Assembly: GCF_053078305.1 (NCBI RefSeq)
Contig: NZ_CP166879.1
Reading direction: 5' to 3' (one strand)
DNA length: 64,000 nucleotides
Shown here: piece after piece, positions 34,748 to 44,959 of the stretch
Position numbering within the stretch: position 1 is the stretch's first letter
How the letters are laid out: every line of letters begins with the position of its first letter
The notes under the pieces: model-generated
Database searches by the model: none
What the model was told of the DNA's origin: nothing
The model's input: the letters and a program-made list of their open reading frames with translations, nothing else
Made by a program: the position numbers and the translations under genes

Positions 34748-35266
34748 TTACGCTTTGGCTTCTTTATGGGTTAAATTGAAATGATGCTCCTTGGTTTCAT
34801 CTCCCTCGAAAATCTCTCTAACCTTTTGATCTGATAAATTATTAAGGCTCAATGCTGCCAGGCGTCGAATACCTGTTAAAGCGATCAACTCTTGATTCTC
34901 TTGATTGCAGAATTCCAGCAATTTTTCTACCCCTTTCCTTCTCAAGGTGTAAATAACTAATTCTTGCTCTTCTTGGCTCAAAGTGTCGATGAGTTCGAGC
35001 AACTCGCTATTGCCACCGTTCTTTTGAGGGGGCTGGTGTTTTATTTCTGCACTACCTGTAATGATGGAAACAACATGTGCAGGTAAGTCGCTTAAACGGT
35101 AGGCAAATGCTCTCCCTCTGATACCAGGTGTAGTTACCGAACGTTTTTCCCATCCTTCATTTTTTGCTCGTTTATGAAGCCCAGCCAGAGATGAAGGAAG
35201 ACCTCCAACCCCCAACAAGTCACTGGCAAGGATCCATTCTTGGTCAAGGATCATATCAAACTCCAT
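34748..35266 (-). CDS. Mu c-type prophage repressor
   Basis: 172 aa, transcribed leftward ~280 bp from the left end; N-terminal motif LPSSLAGLHKRAK shared with the transposase N-terminus (LPSSLAGLHKKAK). Confidence 0.7.
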   Translation of the reverse strand: MEFDMILDQEWILASDLLGVGGLPSSLAGLHKRAKNEGWEKRSVTTPGIRGRAFAYRLSDLPAHVVSIITGSAEIKHQPPQKNGGNSELLELIDTLSQEEQELVIYTLRRKGVEKLLEFCNQENQELIALTGIRRLAALSLNNLSDQKVREIFEGDETKEHHFNLTHKEAKA

Positions 35267-35483
35267 TTGATATTAACTTTTGTTTATATCTTTTATGCGG
35301 TTTATTTCAAAAATAACTCAATAAAAAACAAATAGATACAGAGCAAATTTAAAAATTTGAAATTAACCAGTTGATATTTACTAAGTTAATATCTAACATA
35401 TCAAACATACACTAGTGAGTAACTCAATAGAGTAGCACACATGAGTAATAAAGTTTGCCATAGAAAGTACACAGGGGGCCATT
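35267..35483. promoter_or_regulatory. Early regulatory region (divergent repressor/early promoters and operators)
   Basis: 217-bp AT-rich intergenic region between divergent repressor and ner, with ttgatat-type direct and inverted repeats. Confidence 0.5.
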
Positions 35484-35729
35484 GTGAGTCTTATTGAAGA
35501 TTGGTCTTCCGCCGATATAAAGGCAGCCTTAGAAAAACGCGATACCAATTTGTCACGTTTATCAAGGGAAAATAATTTGCAGCCTAGGACTTTGGGTAAT
35601 GCTTTGCGAGTTCCCTACCCTAAAGGTGAAAAGATAATTGCTAGGGCTATAGGTGTAGAGCCACAGGTTATTTGGCCTACTAGATATGAACGACGTGCGC
35701 GGAGGAAATATGTGGGTTGCAATGACTGA
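35484..35729 (+). CDS. ner: Ner/Nlp-family DNA-binding protein
   Basis: 81 aa; resembles Mu Ner / E. coli Nlp (...LSRLSRENNLQPRTLGNALRVPYPKGEKIIARAIGVEPQVIWPTRY). Confidence 0.75.
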   Translation: MSLIEDWSSADIKAALEKRDTNLSRLSRENNLQPRTLGNALRVPYPKGEKIIARAIGVEPQVIWPTRYERRARRKYVGCND

Positions 35730-37794
35730 ATTGATTTCATTCAGTGACCTACCTAGTTCTTTGGCAGGTCTGCACAAAAAAGCAAAGAGGGAAGCGTGGA
35801 AAACGCGGCTAAAACCAGGGGTAAAAGGGAAAGTTTTAGAGTGTGAAATAGGAGCTTTGCCTTTAACTGTTCAGCAGGCAGTACGCGAACGCCATGCCCT
35901 GCAACTGATGACGCAAAAAGCCGATGAATCACCGGCTCCGGTGGTGACAAAGGCCAGACGCTCACCTGCCGTGGTTGATGCGGTGGAGGCATATCGCGGA
36001 TCACCCCAACTGATGGTCGAACGCCTCAATGCCCTGACTGAAAATCAGCGCCAGGTGGCTGATGCACGAATCGCGATCGTCAGCGAAGTTCTGAAAGTCG
36101 CGCAACAACCTGGTTTCAGCTGTGCGAAGGCTATCCGGTTTATCGTTGACAACCTGGCACGTTCGCAGTTGGACGAGCGCATTGTGGCAATGGTTGAGAC
36201 GGCGAACGCCAAAAAGGGAAACAGCCGCGCGTTAAGTGAAATCACGCTGAAACGCTGGATTGCGGCCTTTAACAAGGCGCAGAACGCCGCTGAACGCCTG
36301 CTTTTACTGGCACCGGGTAAGCGCCAGGAAATAAAAGCCGAAGATATTAACTGGCTGCCCGAATTTCTGGCGCAGTATCGCCAGTCAAACGGCCGACCAA
36401 TGACCGAGGCTTACGAGGATTTTGTCGCTGAATGGCAGCACCGGCACGCCGATGAGCCTTATATGCTCGATATCATGCCGTCTTATGACACCATTCGCCG
36501 CGCAATGAAGAAACTGCCGGAAGTGGTGAAACAAAAAGGCCGGGTGACCGGCAGTGAATACCGCCAGCTTGAGGGATTCACGCGCCGCGACTGGTCAAAA
36601 ATGCCGGTGAATTATGTCTGGATTGGTGACGGTCACGGCATGAAGCTGAAATGCGCACACCCGGTTCACGGTCGGCCATTTGCACCGGAAGTGACCTTTG
36701 TTATCGACGGTGGCACGCGCTTTGTGGTGGGCTGGAGCCTTGACCTGGCTGAAAATGTTTTCGCCGTAGCCGGTGCCATACAGCACGGCATTCGCCATCA
36801 CGGCAAACCGTTTCTGTATTACTCGGATAACGGCTCCGGGGAAACCGCCGACATCCTGGATAAGGAGGTTGTGGGGATACTGCCGCGACTGGGGATTAAT
36901 CACCCGACCGGGATTGCCGGTAATCCGCAGGGACGAGGCATTATCGAACGGCTTAACCGCACATTACCGATGCGCATAGCCCGTAAATACCGCACCTATT
37001 TCGGGAAAGGTGCAGATCGCGAGACGTTACGCAAAACCAACCGCGATTTACGCTCGGCATTTACTGCCCTGCAACAGGGCAAACGGCTGAACGCCCGGCA
37101 GCAGTCAGCGATGCGTGATTTACCGTCCTGGTCTGAACTGATTGATGCCATTCGTGACGGTGTTGAGTGGTACAACAACCGGCCGCACGATGAATTACCG
37201 GTGAAGCCGAACGGCAAGCATTACAGCCCGGCGGAGTTCAGAAAAAAACGCCTGGCGGAAGAGGACACGGAAATTGAATGGCTGTCCGATGTTGAGCTGC
37301 GGGATATGTTCCGGCCGATGGTGGAACGCCCTGTAAGACGCTGTGAAATACGCTGGCTGAATAATATTTACTACGCGCCCGAGCTGCGTGACGAGCATGG
37401 TCGTAAGGTGCTTATCAGCTATGACATTCATGATGCCGAACGAATTACCGTACGTCGCCTGGATGGCAGCGTGATTTGCGAGGCGGTATGGGACGGTAAT
37501 AAACGCGAAGCCTTCCCGGTTAGCGCGGAATACTACAAACAGCAGCAACGCCTTAAAGGCATGCGTAAACGCGCAGAGGAAAAAATCCGTGATGCCGAGG
37601 ATGAGGTTGTCAACGTGCTGGAGCACAAGCCGCAGGAGCCCTGGCTGGAAAACATATACCGCCCTGTGGGTAATACGGTGACCGTTCAGCAACCGGTCGC
37701 TGACGATGAACCTGATGAAGAATACGAGCGTAATTTCCAGCGGGGATTGCAGTTGCTGGAAGCGAAATTAAAAGAAAATGACCCGCTGGCCTGA
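35710..37794 (+). CDS. Mu-type DDE transposase (MuA-like)
   Basis: ORF 35686..37794; N-terminal repressor-like DNA-binding domain; DDE core (WIGDGHG, YYSDNGSGE); start codon ambiguous. Confidence 0.9.
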   Translation: MWVAMTELISFSDLPSSLAGLHKKAKREAWKTRLKPGVKGKVLECEIGALPLTVQQAVRERHALQLMTQKADESPAPVVTKARRSPAVVDAVEAYRGSPQLMVERLNALTENQRQVADARIAIVSEVLKVAQQPGFSCAKAIRFIVDNLARSQLDERIVAMVETANAKKGNSRALSEITLKRWIAAFNKAQNAAERLLLLAPGKRQEIKAEDINWLPEFLAQYRQSNGRPMTEAYEDFVAEWQHRHADEPYMLDIMPSYDTIRRAMKKLPEVVKQKGRVTGSEYRQLEGFTRRDWSKMPVNYVWIGDGHGMKLKCAHPVHGRPFAPEVTFVIDGGTRFVVGWSLDLAENVFAVAGAIQHGIRHHGKPFLYYSDNGSGETADILDKEVVGILPRLGINHPTGIAGNPQGRGIIERLNRTLPMRIARKYRTYFGKGADRETLRKTNRDLRSAFTALQQGKRLNARQQSAMRDLPSWSELIDAIRDGVEWYNNRPHDELPVKPNGKHYSPAEFRKKRLAEEDTEIEWLSDVELRDMFRPMVERPVRRCEIRWLNNIYYAPELRDEHGRKVLISYDIHDAERITVRRLDGSVICEAVWDGNKREAFPVSAEYYKQQQRLKGMRKRAEEKIRDAEDEVVNVLEHKPQEPWLENIYRPVGNTVTVQQPVADDEPDEEYERNFQRGLQLLEAKLKENDPLA

Positions 37795-37865: not shown

Positions 37866-38798
37866 ATGACTGATATTAACGATGTAATCAAGACCATTGA
37901 TGAACTTATTGATGGCGGCGTACTGACGCAGTATGCCATCGCCAGAGAGGCGGGAATTTCCGACGGCACATTATCGGCTTTCCGTAAGGGAAAATATAAA
38001 GGCGATAACGCTGCTGTGGCTGCTTCCCTGCGTTCCTGGTATGAGAACTGGAATAAACAAAGCGCACTGCCGGAACCGCCGCAGTTTGTGGAAACGCAGA
38101 CAGTCCAGGAGCTGCGCACACTGTTTCAGGCGGTTCGTCTGATGGGCTGTATTAACGTTATTGTGGGCGTACCGGGTGTGGGTAAAACGGCCACTGCCCG
38201 TAATTACTGCCAGGAGCAACCAAACACCTGGATGATCACCCTGTCACCCGCGCACTCCAGCGTCACGGAGTGTCTGCTGGAGCTGGCCGATGCGCTGGGG
38301 ATTGATTACACCCGCGCGAACAAAGGGGCATTATCCCGCGCCATCCGCCGTCGCCTGATGGGAACGCGTGGACTGGTGATTGTGGATGAGGCGGATCATC
38401 TTGGTATTGACGGTCTGGAGCAACTCCGGGCAATTCAGGACGCCACGGGGATCGGGATGGTGCTTATTGGTAACCCGCGCGGATTGTTTAAAGGTGGACG
38501 CCGCGCCTTTGATGATTTATCGCGCCTGTTCAGCCGTCTTGCCCGTACAAAACAACTTCGCAAGGCCAAAAAGGCGGATGTGCTGGCCATTGCCAGTGCG
38601 TGGGGGATCAGTGGTGAGGCCGAGCTGGCCGTCATGCAGGCTATCGCTGAAAAGCCGGGAGCGTTACGCGTTCTGACACATACGCTTAACCAGGCGTGGC
38701 TCACCGCCAGCGGTGAAGGCGCGGCGCTGACAGAAAAACATATTAATGCGGCCTTTAAAGAGGTTTATACCAACCCTGAATTACTCTCACAGGTGTGA
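37866..38798 (+). CDS. Mu B-like AAA+ ATPase (target DNA activator)
   Basis: 310 aa; N-terminal HTH, Walker A GVPGVGKT, Walker B VIVDEADHL. Confidence 0.85.
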   Translation: MTDINDVIKTIDELIDGGVLTQYAIAREAGISDGTLSAFRKGKYKGDNAAVAASLRSWYENWNKQSALPEPPQFVETQTVQELRTLFQAVRLMGCINVIVGVPGVGKTATARNYCQEQPNTWMITLSPAHSSVTECLLELADALGIDYTRANKGALSRAIRRRLMGTRGLVIVDEADHLGIDGLEQLRAIQDATGIGMVLIGNPRGLFKGGRRAFDDLSRLFSRLARTKQLRKAKKADVLAIASAWGISGEAELAVMQAIAEKPGALRVLTHTLNQAWLTASGEGAALTEKHINAAFKEVYTNPELLSQV

Positions 38799-40151: not shown

Positions 40152-40682
40152 ATGGCAAAACGCGTTACAAAATTAAAGGCCGCAGCAGAGGCGGCACCGC
40201 AGACCCGTGAAGAGGTCAGCCGCGATATCCGCACCCTGGGCGATATTCAGCGAGAGGCGCTGCGCCTGGAAACAGCGATGAATGATGAAGTGGCAGAAAT
40301 CACCGCCCGTTATACGCCGCAGATTGAAAACCTTAAAAAAGAAATCAAAGTGCTTTTTAAGGGGATTCAGGACTGGTGCAAAACCAACCGTGATGAGCTG
40401 ACGAACGGCGGCAAAACCAAAACTGCCAATCTGACCACCGGAACAGTGTCATGGCGGCTGGGAAATCCATCATGCAGCGTCAGCCGTGATGTGGAAGGTG
40501 TGATTGAAATGCTGCGCCGTATGGGGCTTGAGCGATTCATCCGCACGAAAGAGGAAGTGAACAAGGAAGCGGTCCTGGCGGAGCCGGATGCAGTGAAAGG
40601 CATTGCCGGTATTAAGGTGAATAAAGGCGCTGAAAGTTTTTATGTCGAGCCTTTTGAACAGGACGCCGGACTGAATAAATAA
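40152..40682 (+). CDS. gam: Host-nuclease inhibitor Gam (Mu Gam family, DNA-end binding)
   Basis: 176 aa; size, position after B and sequence features consistent with Mu Gam. Confidence 0.75.
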   Translation: MAKRVTKLKAAAEAAPQTREEVSRDIRTLGDIQREALRLETAMNDEVAEITARYTPQIENLKKEIKVLFKGIQDWCKTNRDELTNGGKTKTANLTTGTVSWRLGNPSCSVSRDVEGVIEMLRRMGLERFIRTKEEVNKEAVLAEPDAVKGIAGIKVNKGAESFYVEPFEQDAGLNK

Positions 40683-40779
40683 CACCGCATTAAATCTTTA
40701 AATATCACATCGTTTTAAGTATGGCGCTCGCGTCAGGGGACTGTCTGCGCCTGTAAACTGAAAATAAGGAACAGGATAT

Positions 40780-41322
40780 ATGGCATATTTTTATTTCAAA
40801 TTAGACCGTGTGCAGACAAATAAATATTTCACCAAATATCAACAGACTGTTTTACCGCTACGCAACAGTATTCTTCGGGCATTACTGAAAAATACAGGCG
40901 CTGCCGGATTGCGCTTAAAGCCGTTTGCCATGGACGTAATCAGTGAGTTTTATTTTTCTGGTACTCTGCCTGCGGGCTGGCGTAAGCGCGATGATGTGGC
41001 TTTTATCGGGGACGGACCGTGCTTTATTGCCAGACCTGATGAGTCATGCCCTGAAGGACCGGCGATTGCCGCAATGATTGAAGCCGCTGAACGCGAGTTA
41101 AGAAAGCGTCCTGATTTCCTTGTCTGGCTCTGTGAAAAGCTGGGGGTAATGAGAATCCCCTCCATGTTTAACATGGACTCCTGGTGGACCCCGTCGCTCT
41201 CCCGTGATGCCCTGTGCGTGGTGTTTAAAGTAGGCGCTTATGGCAGGGAAATAAAAGGGGGTATTCCTGAAGAATGCCAGGAGATTAAACATTCTGAATA
41301 TGTGGCGCTGACGGAGGAATAA
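40780..41322 (+). CDS. Hypothetical protein
   Basis: 180-aa ORF, no recognisable motif. Confidence 0.45.
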   Translation: MAYFYFKLDRVQTNKYFTKYQQTVLPLRNSILRALLKNTGAAGLRLKPFAMDVISEFYFSGTLPAGWRKRDDVAFIGDGPCFIARPDESCPEGPAIAAMIEAAERELRKRPDFLVWLCEKLGVMRIPSMFNMDSWWTPSLSRDALCVVFKVGAYGREIKGGIPEECQEIKHSEYVALTEE

Positions 41323-41325
41323 TTC

Positions 41326-41859
41326 ATGATTGATGCAAAAGTGCTTGAAGGGGTTAAAAACTGGCTGAGTATTTACGGGCGTCTGACCTGCGGAGTTCTG
41401 GCTGAAAAAATGAATATGCCGCCATCCTCGATGGTTTATTTTCTGCGTGATGCGGTTGATGCCGGGGTGCTGACGGAATGTAACGGTTTTTATGATATTC
41501 CGCGTCCCCGCCCGGTGCAGCCGGTTCGTCGCAAATGCAGCCAGGAGTCTGCGGCTGATGATGTTCAGTGGTGCAGCTTCAGAAAATCCCTGCCGTGGAT
41601 TGAGGGGCATGATATTCCGTCGATGGCGTGGGAATTTGCTCAGGGCATACTGACCTGTGAAACCGTTTATGTGGTGGCTGAAGTTGATGAGCAGGCCATG
41701 AAAGAAGGCGTGCCCCAGTTTGTGATGGCGTATATCGACATACGCCTGGGTGTCATTATCTGCGGTTTAAGCGGCTGGAATATCACCTCGCGCGTTCTGC
41801 GTTACCTGATTGTTGACCGGACGGCCGCGCCTGCCGGGATATCTGCGGAGGTGGCGTAA
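41326..41859 (+). CDS. Hypothetical protein (possible N-terminal winged helix)
   Basis: 177-aa ORF, 3 bp after previous stop. Confidence 0.45.
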   Translation: MIDAKVLEGVKNWLSIYGRLTCGVLAEKMNMPPSSMVYFLRDAVDAGVLTECNGFYDIPRPRPVQPVRRKCSQESAADDVQWCSFRKSLPWIEGHDIPSMAWEFAQGILTCETVYVVAEVDEQAMKEGVPQFVMAYIDIRLGVIICGLSGWNITSRVLRYLIVDRTAAPAGISAEVA

Positions 41860-42374
41860 TGTTCTTTAAAACATCAAACCCTTCCGCGCTGGCCGCGTGG
41901 CAAAAATATCAGCAGGACTGCCAGAAAGTTAAGGATGAGGCAAAACGCCTTGAGGCCGTGCTGAATGTTGCGTGCCGGTCGGTATTTGTATCCGGTATCA
42001 GTGGCTTTTGTTTTAAAGGGCTGCGCTTTATGGATGACAAATATCCTTTTCATCGCGACTTATGGCGAAAACCGACTGCGTCGAATGGCTGGAGCTGCAC
42101 ACCGCGCACATCACGTATTCCCAAAGCCCTGCGCGTTGCCTCTGACGAACTTAACAGTCTGTGGCGTGAATATTCGCCCGTCACGTATGCCAGAACCGAT
42201 GCACTGTTGTTCTGGCTGGGTATTGATTTCTCGGCAATCATGTTTGGCCCTGTGAAGTGGTTCTGCGTTGACGATGTGATTTACCTTGAGTGCGGCGTAA
42301 AACCCGCAAATCAGAAAATGACCGAAATTCTGTCTGATGAGTTTTATGCTGCTGAAAAGCGAGTCAGGGGGTGA
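41859..42374 (+). CDS. Hypothetical protein
   Basis: 171-aa ORF, start overlaps previous stop. Confidence 0.45.
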   Translation: MFFKTSNPSALAAWQKYQQDCQKVKDEAKRLEAVLNVACRSVFVSGISGFCFKGLRFMDDKYPFHRDLWRKPTASNGWSCTPRTSRIPKALRVASDELNSLWREYSPVTYARTDALLFWLGIDFSAIMFGPVKWFCVDDVIYLECGVKPANQKMTEILSDEFYAAEKRVRG

Positions 42375-42377
42375 TGT

Positions 42378-42929
42378 ATGATGATTTTACAACCCATGGG
42401 GCGAAAAGGTCAGGCACCTGCTCATGTCCGTGCGTGGACACCTGAAGAAGATGCGCTGCTGATTGCGCTTTATCCATCCACCCCGGTTAAGGATATTGCT
42501 GTCAGGGTAAAAAGAAGTTTCTGGGGTGTACATAACCGGATTGTTTTATTACGCGGTACTTACCCGGAGTTGCTCAAATGCAAACGTCCAAGATTTAAAC
42601 ATGATGAAGATAAATTTATCCGAAAAAATGCCAGAACGATGACCGGTAAGCAAATAGGAGAATATCTGGGGCGAGACCGGGATTCTGTCCACAATCGGGC
42701 GCGATATATTGGCGTAAGCATGAAAAAATACGGAGAATTGCTGCCCTTCACCCGTATACCTGACGATGATGTTCATCTTATTCGTGAATTACGGGATGCT
42801 GAATCACCACGACGTCTTACCTTCCGGGAAATAGGCGAGAAATTTGAATTATCCGAGAGTACGGTGAATTTTATTTATCACCATCGCCGGACTGCCGAGG
42901 ACGCTGTATTACGGGAGTTAACGCCATGA
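42378..42929 (+). CDS. Hypothetical DNA-binding protein with three tandem ~45-aa Myb/HTH-like repeats
   Basis: 183 aa; repeats begin WTPEEDALLIALY..., KHDEDKFIRKNAR..., IPDDDVHLIRELRD..., each ending in an S-x-x-N-R/H-R-R-like motif; AT-rich codon usage. Confidence 0.5.
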   Translation: MMILQPMGRKGQAPAHVRAWTPEEDALLIALYPSTPVKDIAVRVKRSFWGVHNRIVLLRGTYPELLKCKRPRFKHDEDKFIRKNARTMTGKQIGEYLGRDRDSVHNRARYIGVSMKKYGELLPFTRIPDDDVHLIRELRDAESPRRLTFREIGEKFELSESTVNFIYHHRRTAEDAVLRELTP

Positions 42930-43111: not shown

Positions 43112-43482
43112 GAAAAATCACGTCCTTGTCAGAGTTACAGGAGATGAATATGAGTATTGAATTAAGATCGTCTTATGAGTATCGCAAATTTCTTATCGCC
43201 GGAGGCATGAAACCGGAAGATGTGGAAAAAATCGTTTCTTTTATGGATAAGGAATGTGACAAGCGGGATGTGTCAGAAATTATTATGGATGACATGATTC
43301 TGGATTCAGTCGTGGCGTTAAGTCCGTTATGGATTGTGCATTCTCTTGCGGAAATTGCCAAAGGCACCGATAAACAGGCAGCTGTTGCTGCCCTTCAGAC
43401 GCTTAATGAAATGCGTATATCTCCACGCCCGACATTAATACAGATGATTTTGTCCAGTATGGAGGATAAAGCAAATGAATAG
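43108..43482 (+). CDS. Hypothetical cytoplasmic protein
   Basis: 124-aa ORF, start overlaps previous stop; possible internal start at MSIELRS. Confidence 0.45.
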   Translation: MRKITSLSELQEMNMSIELRSSYEYRKFLIAGGMKPEDVEKIVSFMDKECDKRDVSEIIMDDMILDSVVALSPLWIVHSLAEIAKGTDKQAAVAALQTLNEMRISPRPTLIQMILSSMEDKANE

Positions 43483-43672: not shown

Positions 43673-43958
43673 TTCGCAGTTGTTCTGGTGTTTATATATC
43701 ACATCGTTTTTCGGTGCATTCGTCATTACACGATGGCTGTGCCGGAAAGTTATCAGTATTTTTCATAAAAAATACCTGATTGGGCTGGCGGCGACTTCTC
43801 TGATTAATGCACTTGCCAGATATCATAAGGGGGAATACTACTCAAGAATAAAAACTGATGATGGTTTTAATATTTTTGTGATTCCTCCGGAGTATCGGGT
43901 TCAGCTCGATCGGGAAAGTAATATCTATCATATCAGCAGGAGTGTTGATACAGCATGA
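43662..43958 (+). CDS. Small membrane protein (N-terminal TM helix)
   Basis: 98 aa; LFWCLYITSFFGAFVITRWL hydrophobic segment. Confidence 0.45.
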   Translation: MDSSSQLFWCLYITSFFGAFVITRWLCRKVISIFHKKYLIGLAATSLINALARYHKGEYYSRIKTDDGFNIFVIPPEYRVQLDRESNIYHISRSVDTA

Positions 43959-44464
43959 GAGGGAAACTGATATCCGCTATTCATGTGGCAAAGCGCGAGC
44001 TTGCCCTGGATGATGAGACCTACACATTCGTACTACTGGCAGCCACCGGCAAAACCAGTTGCCGGGATATGTCACCGGATGAGTTATCCCGCGTGCTGGA
44101 TGTTTTCAAAAAACGCGGTTTTAAAGTGCGTCAGAAACCGGTTAACCGGGCCTTAAAACCGGGTACGGTGACCGCCAAAATTCGCGCCATCTGGAAAGTG
44201 ATGCACTGGCAGGGCTTTATCTCTGATGGTGCGGAAACCGCTCTTAACCGCTGGGTGAAATCGCAGACGGCCGCGCAGAACGGCGGCGAAGGTGTGGCAA
44301 ACTGGCAGTGGCTGGAGCAACACCCCGCCCTGGCCTCAGATGTGCTGGAGCGTCTCAAGCGATGGCACCGCCGCAAAATGCTGGCCGCGATGGGAATGCC
44401 CGAACGCACGCTGATGGGGTATGACGCCGTTTGCAGGCAGTATGAAAAATCACTTCCCCGTTAA
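43955..44464 (+). CDS. gemA: GemA-like protein (Mu gp16 family)
   Basis: 169 aa; last gene of early region before terminator; motifs consistent with GemA family. Confidence 0.6.
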   Translation: MRGKLISAIHVAKRELALDDETYTFVLLAATGKTSCRDMSPDELSRVLDVFKKRGFKVRQKPVNRALKPGTVTAKIRAIWKVMHWQGFISDGAETALNRWVKSQTAAQNGGEGVANWQWLEQHPALASDVLERLKRWHRRKMLAAMGMPERTLMGYDAVCRQYEKSLPR

Positions 44465-44467
44465 CCC

Positions 44468-44500
44468 CAAATCCCGCCACAACGCGGGATTTTTATTTTA
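44468..44500 (+). terminator. Early-operon intrinsic terminator
   Basis: aaatcccgc-cacaa-gcgggattt hairpin followed by ttttatttt directly after gemA stop. Confidence 0.55.
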
Positions 44501-44533: not shown

Positions 44534-44959
44534 ATGGCAGAAACTCAGATGAGCATGTTTGGTGGTGACAGTGAGCAACTGCACGCCCTTATCGACCGCC
44601 TTGATGACATCCCTGATGATGTTCTCAAAAAGAACTGGCCGCGTACCCTGTCTGAACTGGTTGAAGTCACCGGCGCAGAACTTCAGCGTCAGGGGATTGA
44701 GCCGGTACTGGCCGGTAAACTGGCACGCAAGGTGGCTGCGGCTCAGGCCGCCTATATGGGCGGACGGGGTTATTACCTGCCGGTCGGGGAATCTCTCTTT
44801 GCCGAGCTGCGAAACAATGAGATATTTTCGCGCTGGGACCGGGGCGAGAAAATTGAATCCCTTCGCCGCCATTACCGGATGTCAGAAACCCAGATTTATA
44901 CCGTCATACGTGAACAGCGCCGTCTGCATCTGGCAAGAACACAACCGCCACTTTTCTGA
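44534..44959 (+). CDS. Mor/C-family transcriptional activator of middle/late genes
   Basis: 141 aa; C-terminal HTH (ETQIYTVIREQRR); sits between early terminator and lysis genes. Confidence 0.65.
   Translation: MAETQMSMFGGDSEQLHALIDRLDDIPDDVLKKNWPRTLSELVEVTGAELQRQGIEPVLAGKLARKVAAAQAAYMGGRGYYLPVGESLFAELRNNEIFSRWDRGEKIESLRRHYRMSETQIYTVIREQRRLHLARTQPPLF

Follow-up and report, generated by a model that had tools for sequence, protein, structure and literature searches.

Here, we analysed three consecutive open reading frames (ORFs) that follow the gam gene of a Mu-like prophage of Escherichia coli, located in a stretch of 64,000 nucleotides from contig NZ_CP166879.1 (assembly GCF_053078305.1), hereafter called the window. 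ORF2 and ORF3 are homologs of the Mu genes gp11 and gp12, and ORF1, as judged from its sequence, is a divergent member of the DUF5420 superfamily. The trio thus consists of homologs of catalogued, uncharacterised early genes of the Mu family, which lie in an ordinary variable accessory region and do not make up a new three-part system. The genes are separable modules without any obligate three-part machine among them: enterobacterial phages of Mu type have gp11 in common, gp12 is dispensable, and ORF1 is a sharply bounded cassette, swapped among very divergent alleles or deleted. We give the overall explanation of the trio, including the tentative mechanism proposed below, a probability of about 0.55. 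The original prediction, made from the sequence of this DNA alone, had suggested that the three ORFs of unknown function form one functional unit and had recognised no motif in them. The latter statement has to be revised, since all three proteins belong to catalogued families, namely DUF5420/PHROG 2260, Mu gp11/PF25754 and Mu gp12/PF26885.

ORF1 (40780–41322, 180 amino acids), ORF2 (41326–41859, 177 amino acids) and ORF3 (41859–42374, 171 amino acids) lie on the + strand and start with ATG. The predicted arrangement of three ORFs of similar size with 3-bp or overlapping junctions after gam agrees exactly with the ORF list and with the sequence in coordinates, strand and junctions, and the AT-rich beginning ascribed to the first ORF is found both at the 5' end of ORF1 and in the 97-bp spacer upstream of it. 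Read from the sequence, the ORF1/gp11 junction is GGAGGAA-TAA-ttc-ATG with 3 bp between stop and start, at the gp11/gp12 junction (GGAGGTGGCG-TAATG) stop and start share 1 nt, and the junction of gp12 with the next gene (AGGGGGTGA-tgt-ATG) again leaves 3 bp in between. The Shine-Dalgarno sequence of gp11 is GGAGGAA (41313–41319) within the last codons of ORF1, that of gp12 GGAGGTG (41847–41853) within the 3' end of gp11. Because every Shine-Dalgarno sequence sits in the last codons of the preceding gene, ORF1, gp11 and gp12 are translationally coupled.

RefSeq calls the same three coding sequences "hypothetical protein" in E. coli genomes, and intact homologs are present in at least 47 related loci with constant junction spacing. 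The ratio of nonsynonymous to synonymous substitution rates (dN/dS) amounts to 0.10–0.29 for gp11, 0.16–0.20 for gp12 and 0.22–0.45 for ORF1, indicating purifying selection on all three; gam falls within 0.10–0.29, compared with 0.22–0.45 for ORF1. PHROG matches are strong throughout, with E-values of 1.7e-74 for ORF1, 5.5e-105 for ORF2 and 1.4e-85 for ORF3. The idea that one or more of these ORFs arose by chance or as an annotation artefact is effectively refuted by their intactness and conservation across divergent phages at dN/dS below 0.5, by PHROG E-values down to 1e-105 and by the confident structural model obtained for ORF1, and we found no point in its favour. It should be mentioned that the early Mu sequence M64097 had gp11 divided into E10, E11 and E12 through sequencing frameshifts.

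ORF2 aligns with Mu gp11 (Mup11, NP_050615) over residues 1–177 at 67% identity (E=1.7e-72) and is assigned to PHROG 1949. Its C-terminal half carries the Gp11_C domain (Pfam PF25754, "Phage Mu Gp11 C-terminal domain") with 135.3 bits against a cut-off of 27 (E=9e-40), the match covering the whole model over residues 90–167 (41593–41826), and all 22 of the 22 aligned relatives match as well. Mu gp11 shares this domain, the position after gam and the 1-nt overlap with gp12; it adjoins gam directly, whereas in the window ORF1 lies in between, and no structural difference is seen otherwise. The linker between the N-terminal ~60 residues (41326–41505) and Gp11_C is poorly conserved. For the N-terminus itself, the sub-threshold Pfam matches of the gp11 family (22 members) are all of helix-turn-helix (HTH) or winged-helix type and fall on residues ~18–49, with HTH_20 as the best one (E=0.012) and PCI, HTH_CodY, WH4_Lhr, HTH_24 and HTH_10 as further ones. 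Three N-terminal helices are predicted at a predicted local distance difference test score (pLDDT) of about 50. These matches would fit a winged-helix-like, probably DNA-binding N-terminus of gp11. A fused gp11-(G4S)6-gp12 prediction was of low confidence (pLDDT 50, predicted template modelling score (pTM) 0.37), both alignments being shallow.

ORF3 corresponds to Mu gp12 (Mup12, NP_050616, formerly E13), to which it is 55% identical over residues 1–168 of 171 (E=4e-60), and it matches PHROG 2314. It occupies the same position and is coupled in the same way as Mu gp12, and it is more diverged from its Mu counterpart than ORF2 is from Mu gp11. Neither ORF3 nor Mu gp12 gave a match in our Pfam scan, and the PF26885 model is apparently absent from the scanned copy of Pfam; proteins 94–98% identical to ORF3 carry a precomputed PF26885 match. 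The gp12 family is dispensable, being missing or frameshifted in many relatives including SfMu, and has remote homologs in non-Mu phages. In SfMu (L002, NC_027382) we observed an unannotated, frameshifted gp12 copy at 7442–7943. It fills the gap between gp13 and the gene annotated there as gp12, which is homologous to Mu gp11. That SfMu has no counterpart of Mu orf12, as its authors state, therefore holds for protein annotation only.

ORF1 is missing from both Mu and D108. It shares 40% identity over its full length with SfMu ORF11 (YP_009152197, annotated DUF5420), which occupies the same slot and shares the C-terminal motif IKHSE[FY]VALTEE. The DUF5420 model PF17457 (gathering score 26 bits) was in the library, and ORF1 gave no Pfam match at E up to 1. 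Other alleles in the ORF1 slot reach PF17457 at 49–53 bits and distant members at 34–65 bits; the Salmonella/SfMu-type ORF1 allele scores only 15 bits. Since the allele of the window itself misses the Pfam model, we classify ORF1 on sequence grounds as a divergent member of the superfamily. When 1.84 billion proteins were searched with a profile of the slot alleles, 128 cluster representatives were found, which with few exceptions are full-length and 170–210 amino acids long and which are annotated PF17457 wherever this could be checked; gp12-type proteins were not among these 128 matches of the exhaustive DUF5420 search. The C-terminus of ORF1 is formed by the family motif IKHSEYVALTEE, and all slot alleles as well as distant DUF5420 proteins of unrelated phages end in IK[HK]S.[FY][VI].[LI]TEE. 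This motif is encoded with synonymous codon differences between alleles, and the constraint therefore acts at the protein level and does not merely preserve the ribosome-binding site of gp11.

The AlphaFold2 model of ORF1, obtained from a 20-sequence alignment of alleles, reached a pLDDT of 90.2 and a pTM of 0.82 and shows the order strand, two helices, four strands, two helices, three strands, helix. DUF5420 has no solved structure. A search of BFVD with this model returned uncharacterised phage proteins only, with TM-scores (template modelling) up to 0.74, and Foldseek against the PDB gave nothing below E=0.2. The top ~40 PDB matches were nearly all to the N-terminal region of MutS-family proteins (E 0.2–2, TM ~0.2); a viral MutS7 stands far down the BFVD list, and the MutS run may be noise from one abundant PDB family.

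ORF1 and gp12 are, at high probability, remote paralogs that flank gp11 and belong to one superfamily with a fold without solved counterpart, a relationship that we derive from profile comparison. BLASTP of ORF1 against gp12 found nothing significant. In HHalign comparisons, the P-value was 0.19 (not significant) with 10 versus 23 sequences, 0.006 with 37 versus 30 sequences, and 1.1e-4 when gp12 was aligned over its full length to a 146-sequence profile of the DUF5420 superfamily, these three alignments being collinear in the same register (ORF1 5–177, gp12 2–165). With a gp12 profile enriched by five remote gp12-like phage proteins, which match the gp12 hidden Markov model (HMM) at 1e-15 to 1e-31, a probability of 93.5% was reached (P=2.2e-7). 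Controls against gp11, run with the 37-versus-30 and the 146-sequence comparisons, gave P=0.43–0.62. Against the DUF5420 HMM, three of the remote proteins score 17–20 bits, the two Klebsiella proteins 7–9 bits and enterobacterial gp12 proteins 10.5–14.9 bits, the best of 1000 shuffles reaching 9.1. The significant core comprises the N-terminal ~70 residues (strand-helix-helix-strand-strand), and the C-terminal EI..SE[FY] aligns in the full-length comparison. In the fused model, gp12 is confident at its two ends only, where the order of secondary structure mirrors that of ORF1, the rest being of low confidence. A relationship between SfMu ORF11 and Mu orf12, which "may be divergent homologues", had already been suspected by the authors of the SfMu study (PMC4406740). 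Of the checks proposed in the original prediction, profile–profile searches linked ORF1 to gp12, and structure prediction yielded a confident ORF1 model; a match to a solved structure was not among the results.

The separability of the three genes is seen from their distribution. With gp11 as anchor we collected 77 loci and listed the genes between gam and gemA, an interval that was complete in 47 of them; the constancy of gp11 is partly built into this sample by the choice of anchor. Both ORF1 and gp12 were present in 22 intervals, gp12 only in five (including Mu), ORF1 only in eight (including SfMu with its frameshifted gp12) and neither in 12. After dereplication to 33 lineages the corresponding numbers were 16, four, six and eight. 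About 40% of the gp11-carrying loci lack gp12, and where it is absent other small genes occupy its space. In one locus (L045), gp11 runs nearly straight into gemA. Mu-type ORF1 or gp12 homologs without gp11 were not seen. Consequently, the strict co-occurrence of the three genes across Mu-like prophages that would be expected of one functional unit is not found: ORF1 and gp12 come and go independently, giving four states in 33 lineages, and their families also occur apart elsewhere. The original prediction had named, as an outcome that would refute it, the identification of the trio as core Mu genes conserved in all Mu-like phages, and this applies only by half. Of the three, gp11 and gp12 are indeed Mu genes, yet they are not core to all Mu-like phages, since gp11 occurs in 16 of 50,697 phage records, all of them enterobacterial and of Muvirus type, and gp12 is so often missing. 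A scan of species-representative genomes with gp11 as anchor revealed one locus only, in Citrobacter braakii.

Outside this group, further temperate phages have DUF5420 genes and neither gp11 nor gp12. In lambdoid-type elements such a gene adjoins a CI-like repressor, in others it stands among small early ORFs, and none of the neighbours of these distant genes is related to gp11 or gp12. Similarly, phages of Klebsiella, Vibrio and Acinetobacter contain gp12-like genes (26–30% identity, full length) and no gp11. Their hosts include a different transposable Klebsiella phage and virulent Lastavirus phages such as SopranoGao; in Vibrio phages they lie near DNA ligase or near helicase and dUTPase, and in Acinetobacter TCUAN1 in a repressor-proximal operon together with Bet. 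In a search of plasmids, DUF5420 was absent and the gp12-like matches look like prophage insertions. In one small lambdoid-like element (L081 1176–2670, also L080), we noted that the interval from the CI-like repressor to TraR/antiterminator Q is taken up by genes for a 206-aa protein, a DUF5420 protein and a coiled-coil protein of 107 amino acids. This interval is the usual site of replication genes, of which we could recognise none on the fragment.

These observations have to be weighed against the possibility that the trio is one three-component system whose parts work only together. Such a system would be in line with the tight coupling, the ORF1–gp11 spacing being nearly always 3 bp and the gp11–gp12 overlap always 1 nt even across divergent phages, with the similar size of the three proteins and with a positive association between the presence of ORF1 and that of gp12 (odds ratio 5.3, Fisher p=0.036, phylogeny not corrected for). 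The association and the invariant coupling leave room for cooperation of ORF1 and gp12 when both are present. We nevertheless regard a three-component system as unlikely, given that all four presence/absence states are found in otherwise intact prophages, Mu (no ORF1) and SfMu (gp12 frameshifted) among them, that gp11 almost abuts gemA in L045, and that DUF5420 and gp12-like genes exist without gp11 in other phage groups.

The boundaries of the ORF1 cassette are clearly visible in comparison with the related locus L005, to which the window is 96% identical in gam, 99% in gp11 and 96% in gp12, yet 28% in ORF1. In sliding comparison, identity is 88–100% up to 40751, drops to 25–60% over 40752–41312 and returns to 100% from 41313. 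Five groups of ORF1 alleles can be distinguished, with a mutual identity of 21–40%. Relatives of the window lineage that lack ORF1 (L015 7950–7994 and similar) keep a mini-ORF of 14 codons, MKYVYIVINNVVGK, in its place, and this short frame may maintain the translational coupling with gp11. Mu (L001 6405–6423) keeps ATT ACT GAG GAA TAA (...ITEE*) directly upstream of gp11, i.e. the tail of an ORF1-type gene, from which we conclude that Mu lost ORF1 by clean deletion. In a further locus, otherwise 100% identical (L004 7456–7994, IMG/VR UViG_2617271340_000001), ORF1 is frameshifted and loses the C-terminal motif, which reflects either an error of assembly or decay of the gene.

The left edge of the cassette lies at about 40752, just past a conserved element in the non-coding spacer of 97 bp (40683–40779, + strand) between gam and ORF1. 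This element of ~80 nt (40683–40760) is nearly invariant in Mu, SfMu, the window lineage and ORF1-less loci, while the flanking genes are only 57–69% identical. It contains an inverted repeat, GGCGC (40723–40727) and GCGCC (40747–40751), with the core TTTTAAnTATGGCGC-N15-17-GCGCCTG. No Rfam match and no U-tract were found for the element, and its folding energy is unremarkable (z=0.15).

The trio belongs to the "semi-essential" early operon of the Muvirus-type prophage. Starting at the repressor, this part of the phage comprises in order the Pe promoter, ner, A, B, several small ORFs, gam, ORF1, gp11, gp12, further genes, gemA and the terminator. In the window, this corresponds to a c-repressor-like gene on the - strand (34748–35266), a Pe-like promoter match (35371–35399) upstream of ner (35484–35729), MuA (35686–37794) and MuB (37866–38798), five small ORFs between MuB and gam, and gam itself (40152–40682, + strand) as the conserved left flank. 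The latter encodes the host-nuclease inhibitor and is identified by Phage_Mu_Gam (PF07352, E=1.5e-41) and by 57% identity to Mu Gam. Downstream of the trio follow a gene for a putative HTH DNA-binding protein of 183 amino acids (42378–42929, + strand; PHROG 323, E=6e-59, and sub-threshold HTH Pfam matches), more small ORFs and GemA (43955–44464, PF06252). A terminator-like hairpin with a 9-bp stem and a T-run (44469–44492, + strand) comes after gemA, in turn followed by a Mor/C-family activator gene and a lysozyme gene, and this hairpin is likely the end of the early transcription unit that holds the trio. Inside or just upstream of the trio there is no promoter-like match on the + strand, the sole such match in the scanned region lying downstream at 43256–43283. 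We therefore assign the trio, which lacks a promoter of its own, to the long early (Pe) transcript. One weak terminator-like hairpin is located inside gp11 (41421–41435), and the total counts of such hairpins are at the level of shuffled sequence.

For Mu, the functions of the semi-essential early region have been described as "largely uncharacterized" (PMC3820752) and the region as "poorly conserved" (PMC8705779). The earlier placing of the three genes in the part of the phage where accessory systems usually sit is borne out by their location in this variable region. The gene at 42378–42929 is variable as well: neither Mu nor SfMu has it, a part of the related loci carry it, and close relatives show two allele classes of about 70–72% and 90–100% identity. 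Its PHROG is named "D5-like regulator", and RefSeq names for its product vary between DNA-binding, SANT/Myb-like and AsnC family. Between gemA and the lysozyme gene, the interval to which this search was limited, a single Mor/C-family activator (44534–44959) was seen, in contrast to the pair mor and C of Mu. Its product resembles Mu C (39%) more than Mor (27–28%).

With respect to function, the view that it is unknown still holds, insofar as none of the three proteins was matched in NCBIfam or PADLOC (E up to 1) or by PDB sequences, where single-sequence and profile searches returned noise only, and the literature that we searched contained no usable paper on DUF5420, on the Pfam or PHROG accessions or on the Mup11 and Mup12 families; a preprint on phage Tn-seq leaves Mu out. 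ORF1 and gp12 are variably present, are expressed early, evolve faster as proteins, have their alleles replaced while the flanks are conserved, and recur in the early regions of unrelated phages. Such a pattern is on record for accessory genes with which phages meet host defences or takeover targets, and the same study found Mup07, another gene of the Mu semi-essential region, to be an accessory gene that acts on a host barrier defence (bioRxiv 10.1101/2023.04.06.535777). On account of this match, and of the presence of Mup07 in the same region, we favour a role in counter-defence or host takeover. We tentatively propose a model in which the trio would encode accessory proteins that are not essential and are produced within minutes of the onset of lytic development. 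In it, both proteins of DUF5420 type would evolve fast and bind or inhibit host factors, serving counter-defence or host takeover at DNA transactions, and gp11 could act as a DNA-binding partner or regulator through its putative N-terminal winged-helix-like domain. This mechanism is plausible, at somewhat less than even odds. The arrangement is reminiscent of acr-aca operons and of Mu Mup07 ("gnarl2") in that variable non-essential early genes with sharp allele boundaries lie between conserved flanks, and, for acr-aca, in that a conserved gene of HTH type (here, putatively, gp11) stands beside variable genes. This resemblance is one of pattern only, and proteins of the trio families (170–190 amino acids) are larger than most Acr proteins.

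Several points weigh against a counter-defence role. No function has been demonstrated in any of the three families, and the PADLOC search contains no match to known defence proteins. Within allele groups ORF1 is under purifying and not positive selection. The HTH matches of gp11 stay below threshold, and the fused gp11–gp12 model is too unreliable for statements on fold or contact. Finally, the neighbours of gp12-like genes, i.e. Bet, DNA ligase, helicase and dUTPase, fit a role in DNA metabolism equally well. They lend support to the main alternative, in which the trio provides auxiliary factors for the DNA transactions of Mu itself, such as enhancement of replication or transposition or the processing of DNA ends. 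In line with this, the genes lie between gam, which encodes a Ku-like end binder, and gemA, a distant DUF5420 gene occupies the usual replication-gene site between repressor and Q, gp11 has its putative winged-helix domain, and the weak run of MutS N-terminal matches for the ORF1 model offers a lead, albeit not a significant one. Possibly, the trio would then account for the classical "arm" function (amplified replication of Mu), which we take to map between gam and lig/gem and on which our literature search found nothing. However, factors that work on the phage's own conserved replication machinery would not usually be dispensable, as these genes are, nor would their alleles be replaced between near-identical phages, as happens with ORF1. 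We therefore regard an auxiliary role in Mu DNA transactions as possible and rather unlikely.

Considerably less probable is a benefit to the lysogen, with the trio conferring superinfection exclusion or anti-phage defence through low-level expression from the prophage. Low-level Pe transcription across the semi-essential genes has been reported in lysogens (PMC3820752), and variable prophage cassettes often encode defence. Yet PADLOC gave no matches, the genes are located inside a repressed early lytic operon without a promoter of their own, and gp12-like genes also exist in virulent phages such as Lastavirus SopranoGao. A more far-reaching version of the counter-defence model would unite DUF5420 and the Mu gp12 family into a single superfamily of early proteins, widespread among phages and with a previously unsolved fold, comprising at least 128 clusters at 50% identity in temperate and virulent phages and acting as fast-evolving inhibitors of host DNA repair or defence. 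The two paralogs would then flank the DNA-binding gp11 in the manner of aca beside acr. In this full form we consider the proposal doubtful.

The region is present in 261 of 5,426 complete E. coli genomes (about 4–5%), including O157:H7 strains, and the closest phage records are Mu-like phages inserted in Stx-converting phages, at 95–96% identity. For further work on these phages, the trio should not be handled as a system, since its parts assort independently. The probable paralogy of ORF1 and gp12 merges two uncharacterised families and supports the speculation of the SfMu authors. Being cleanly bounded and easily engineered, the ORF1 slot is a good candidate for counter-defence or host-takeover screens in the Mu semi-essential region.

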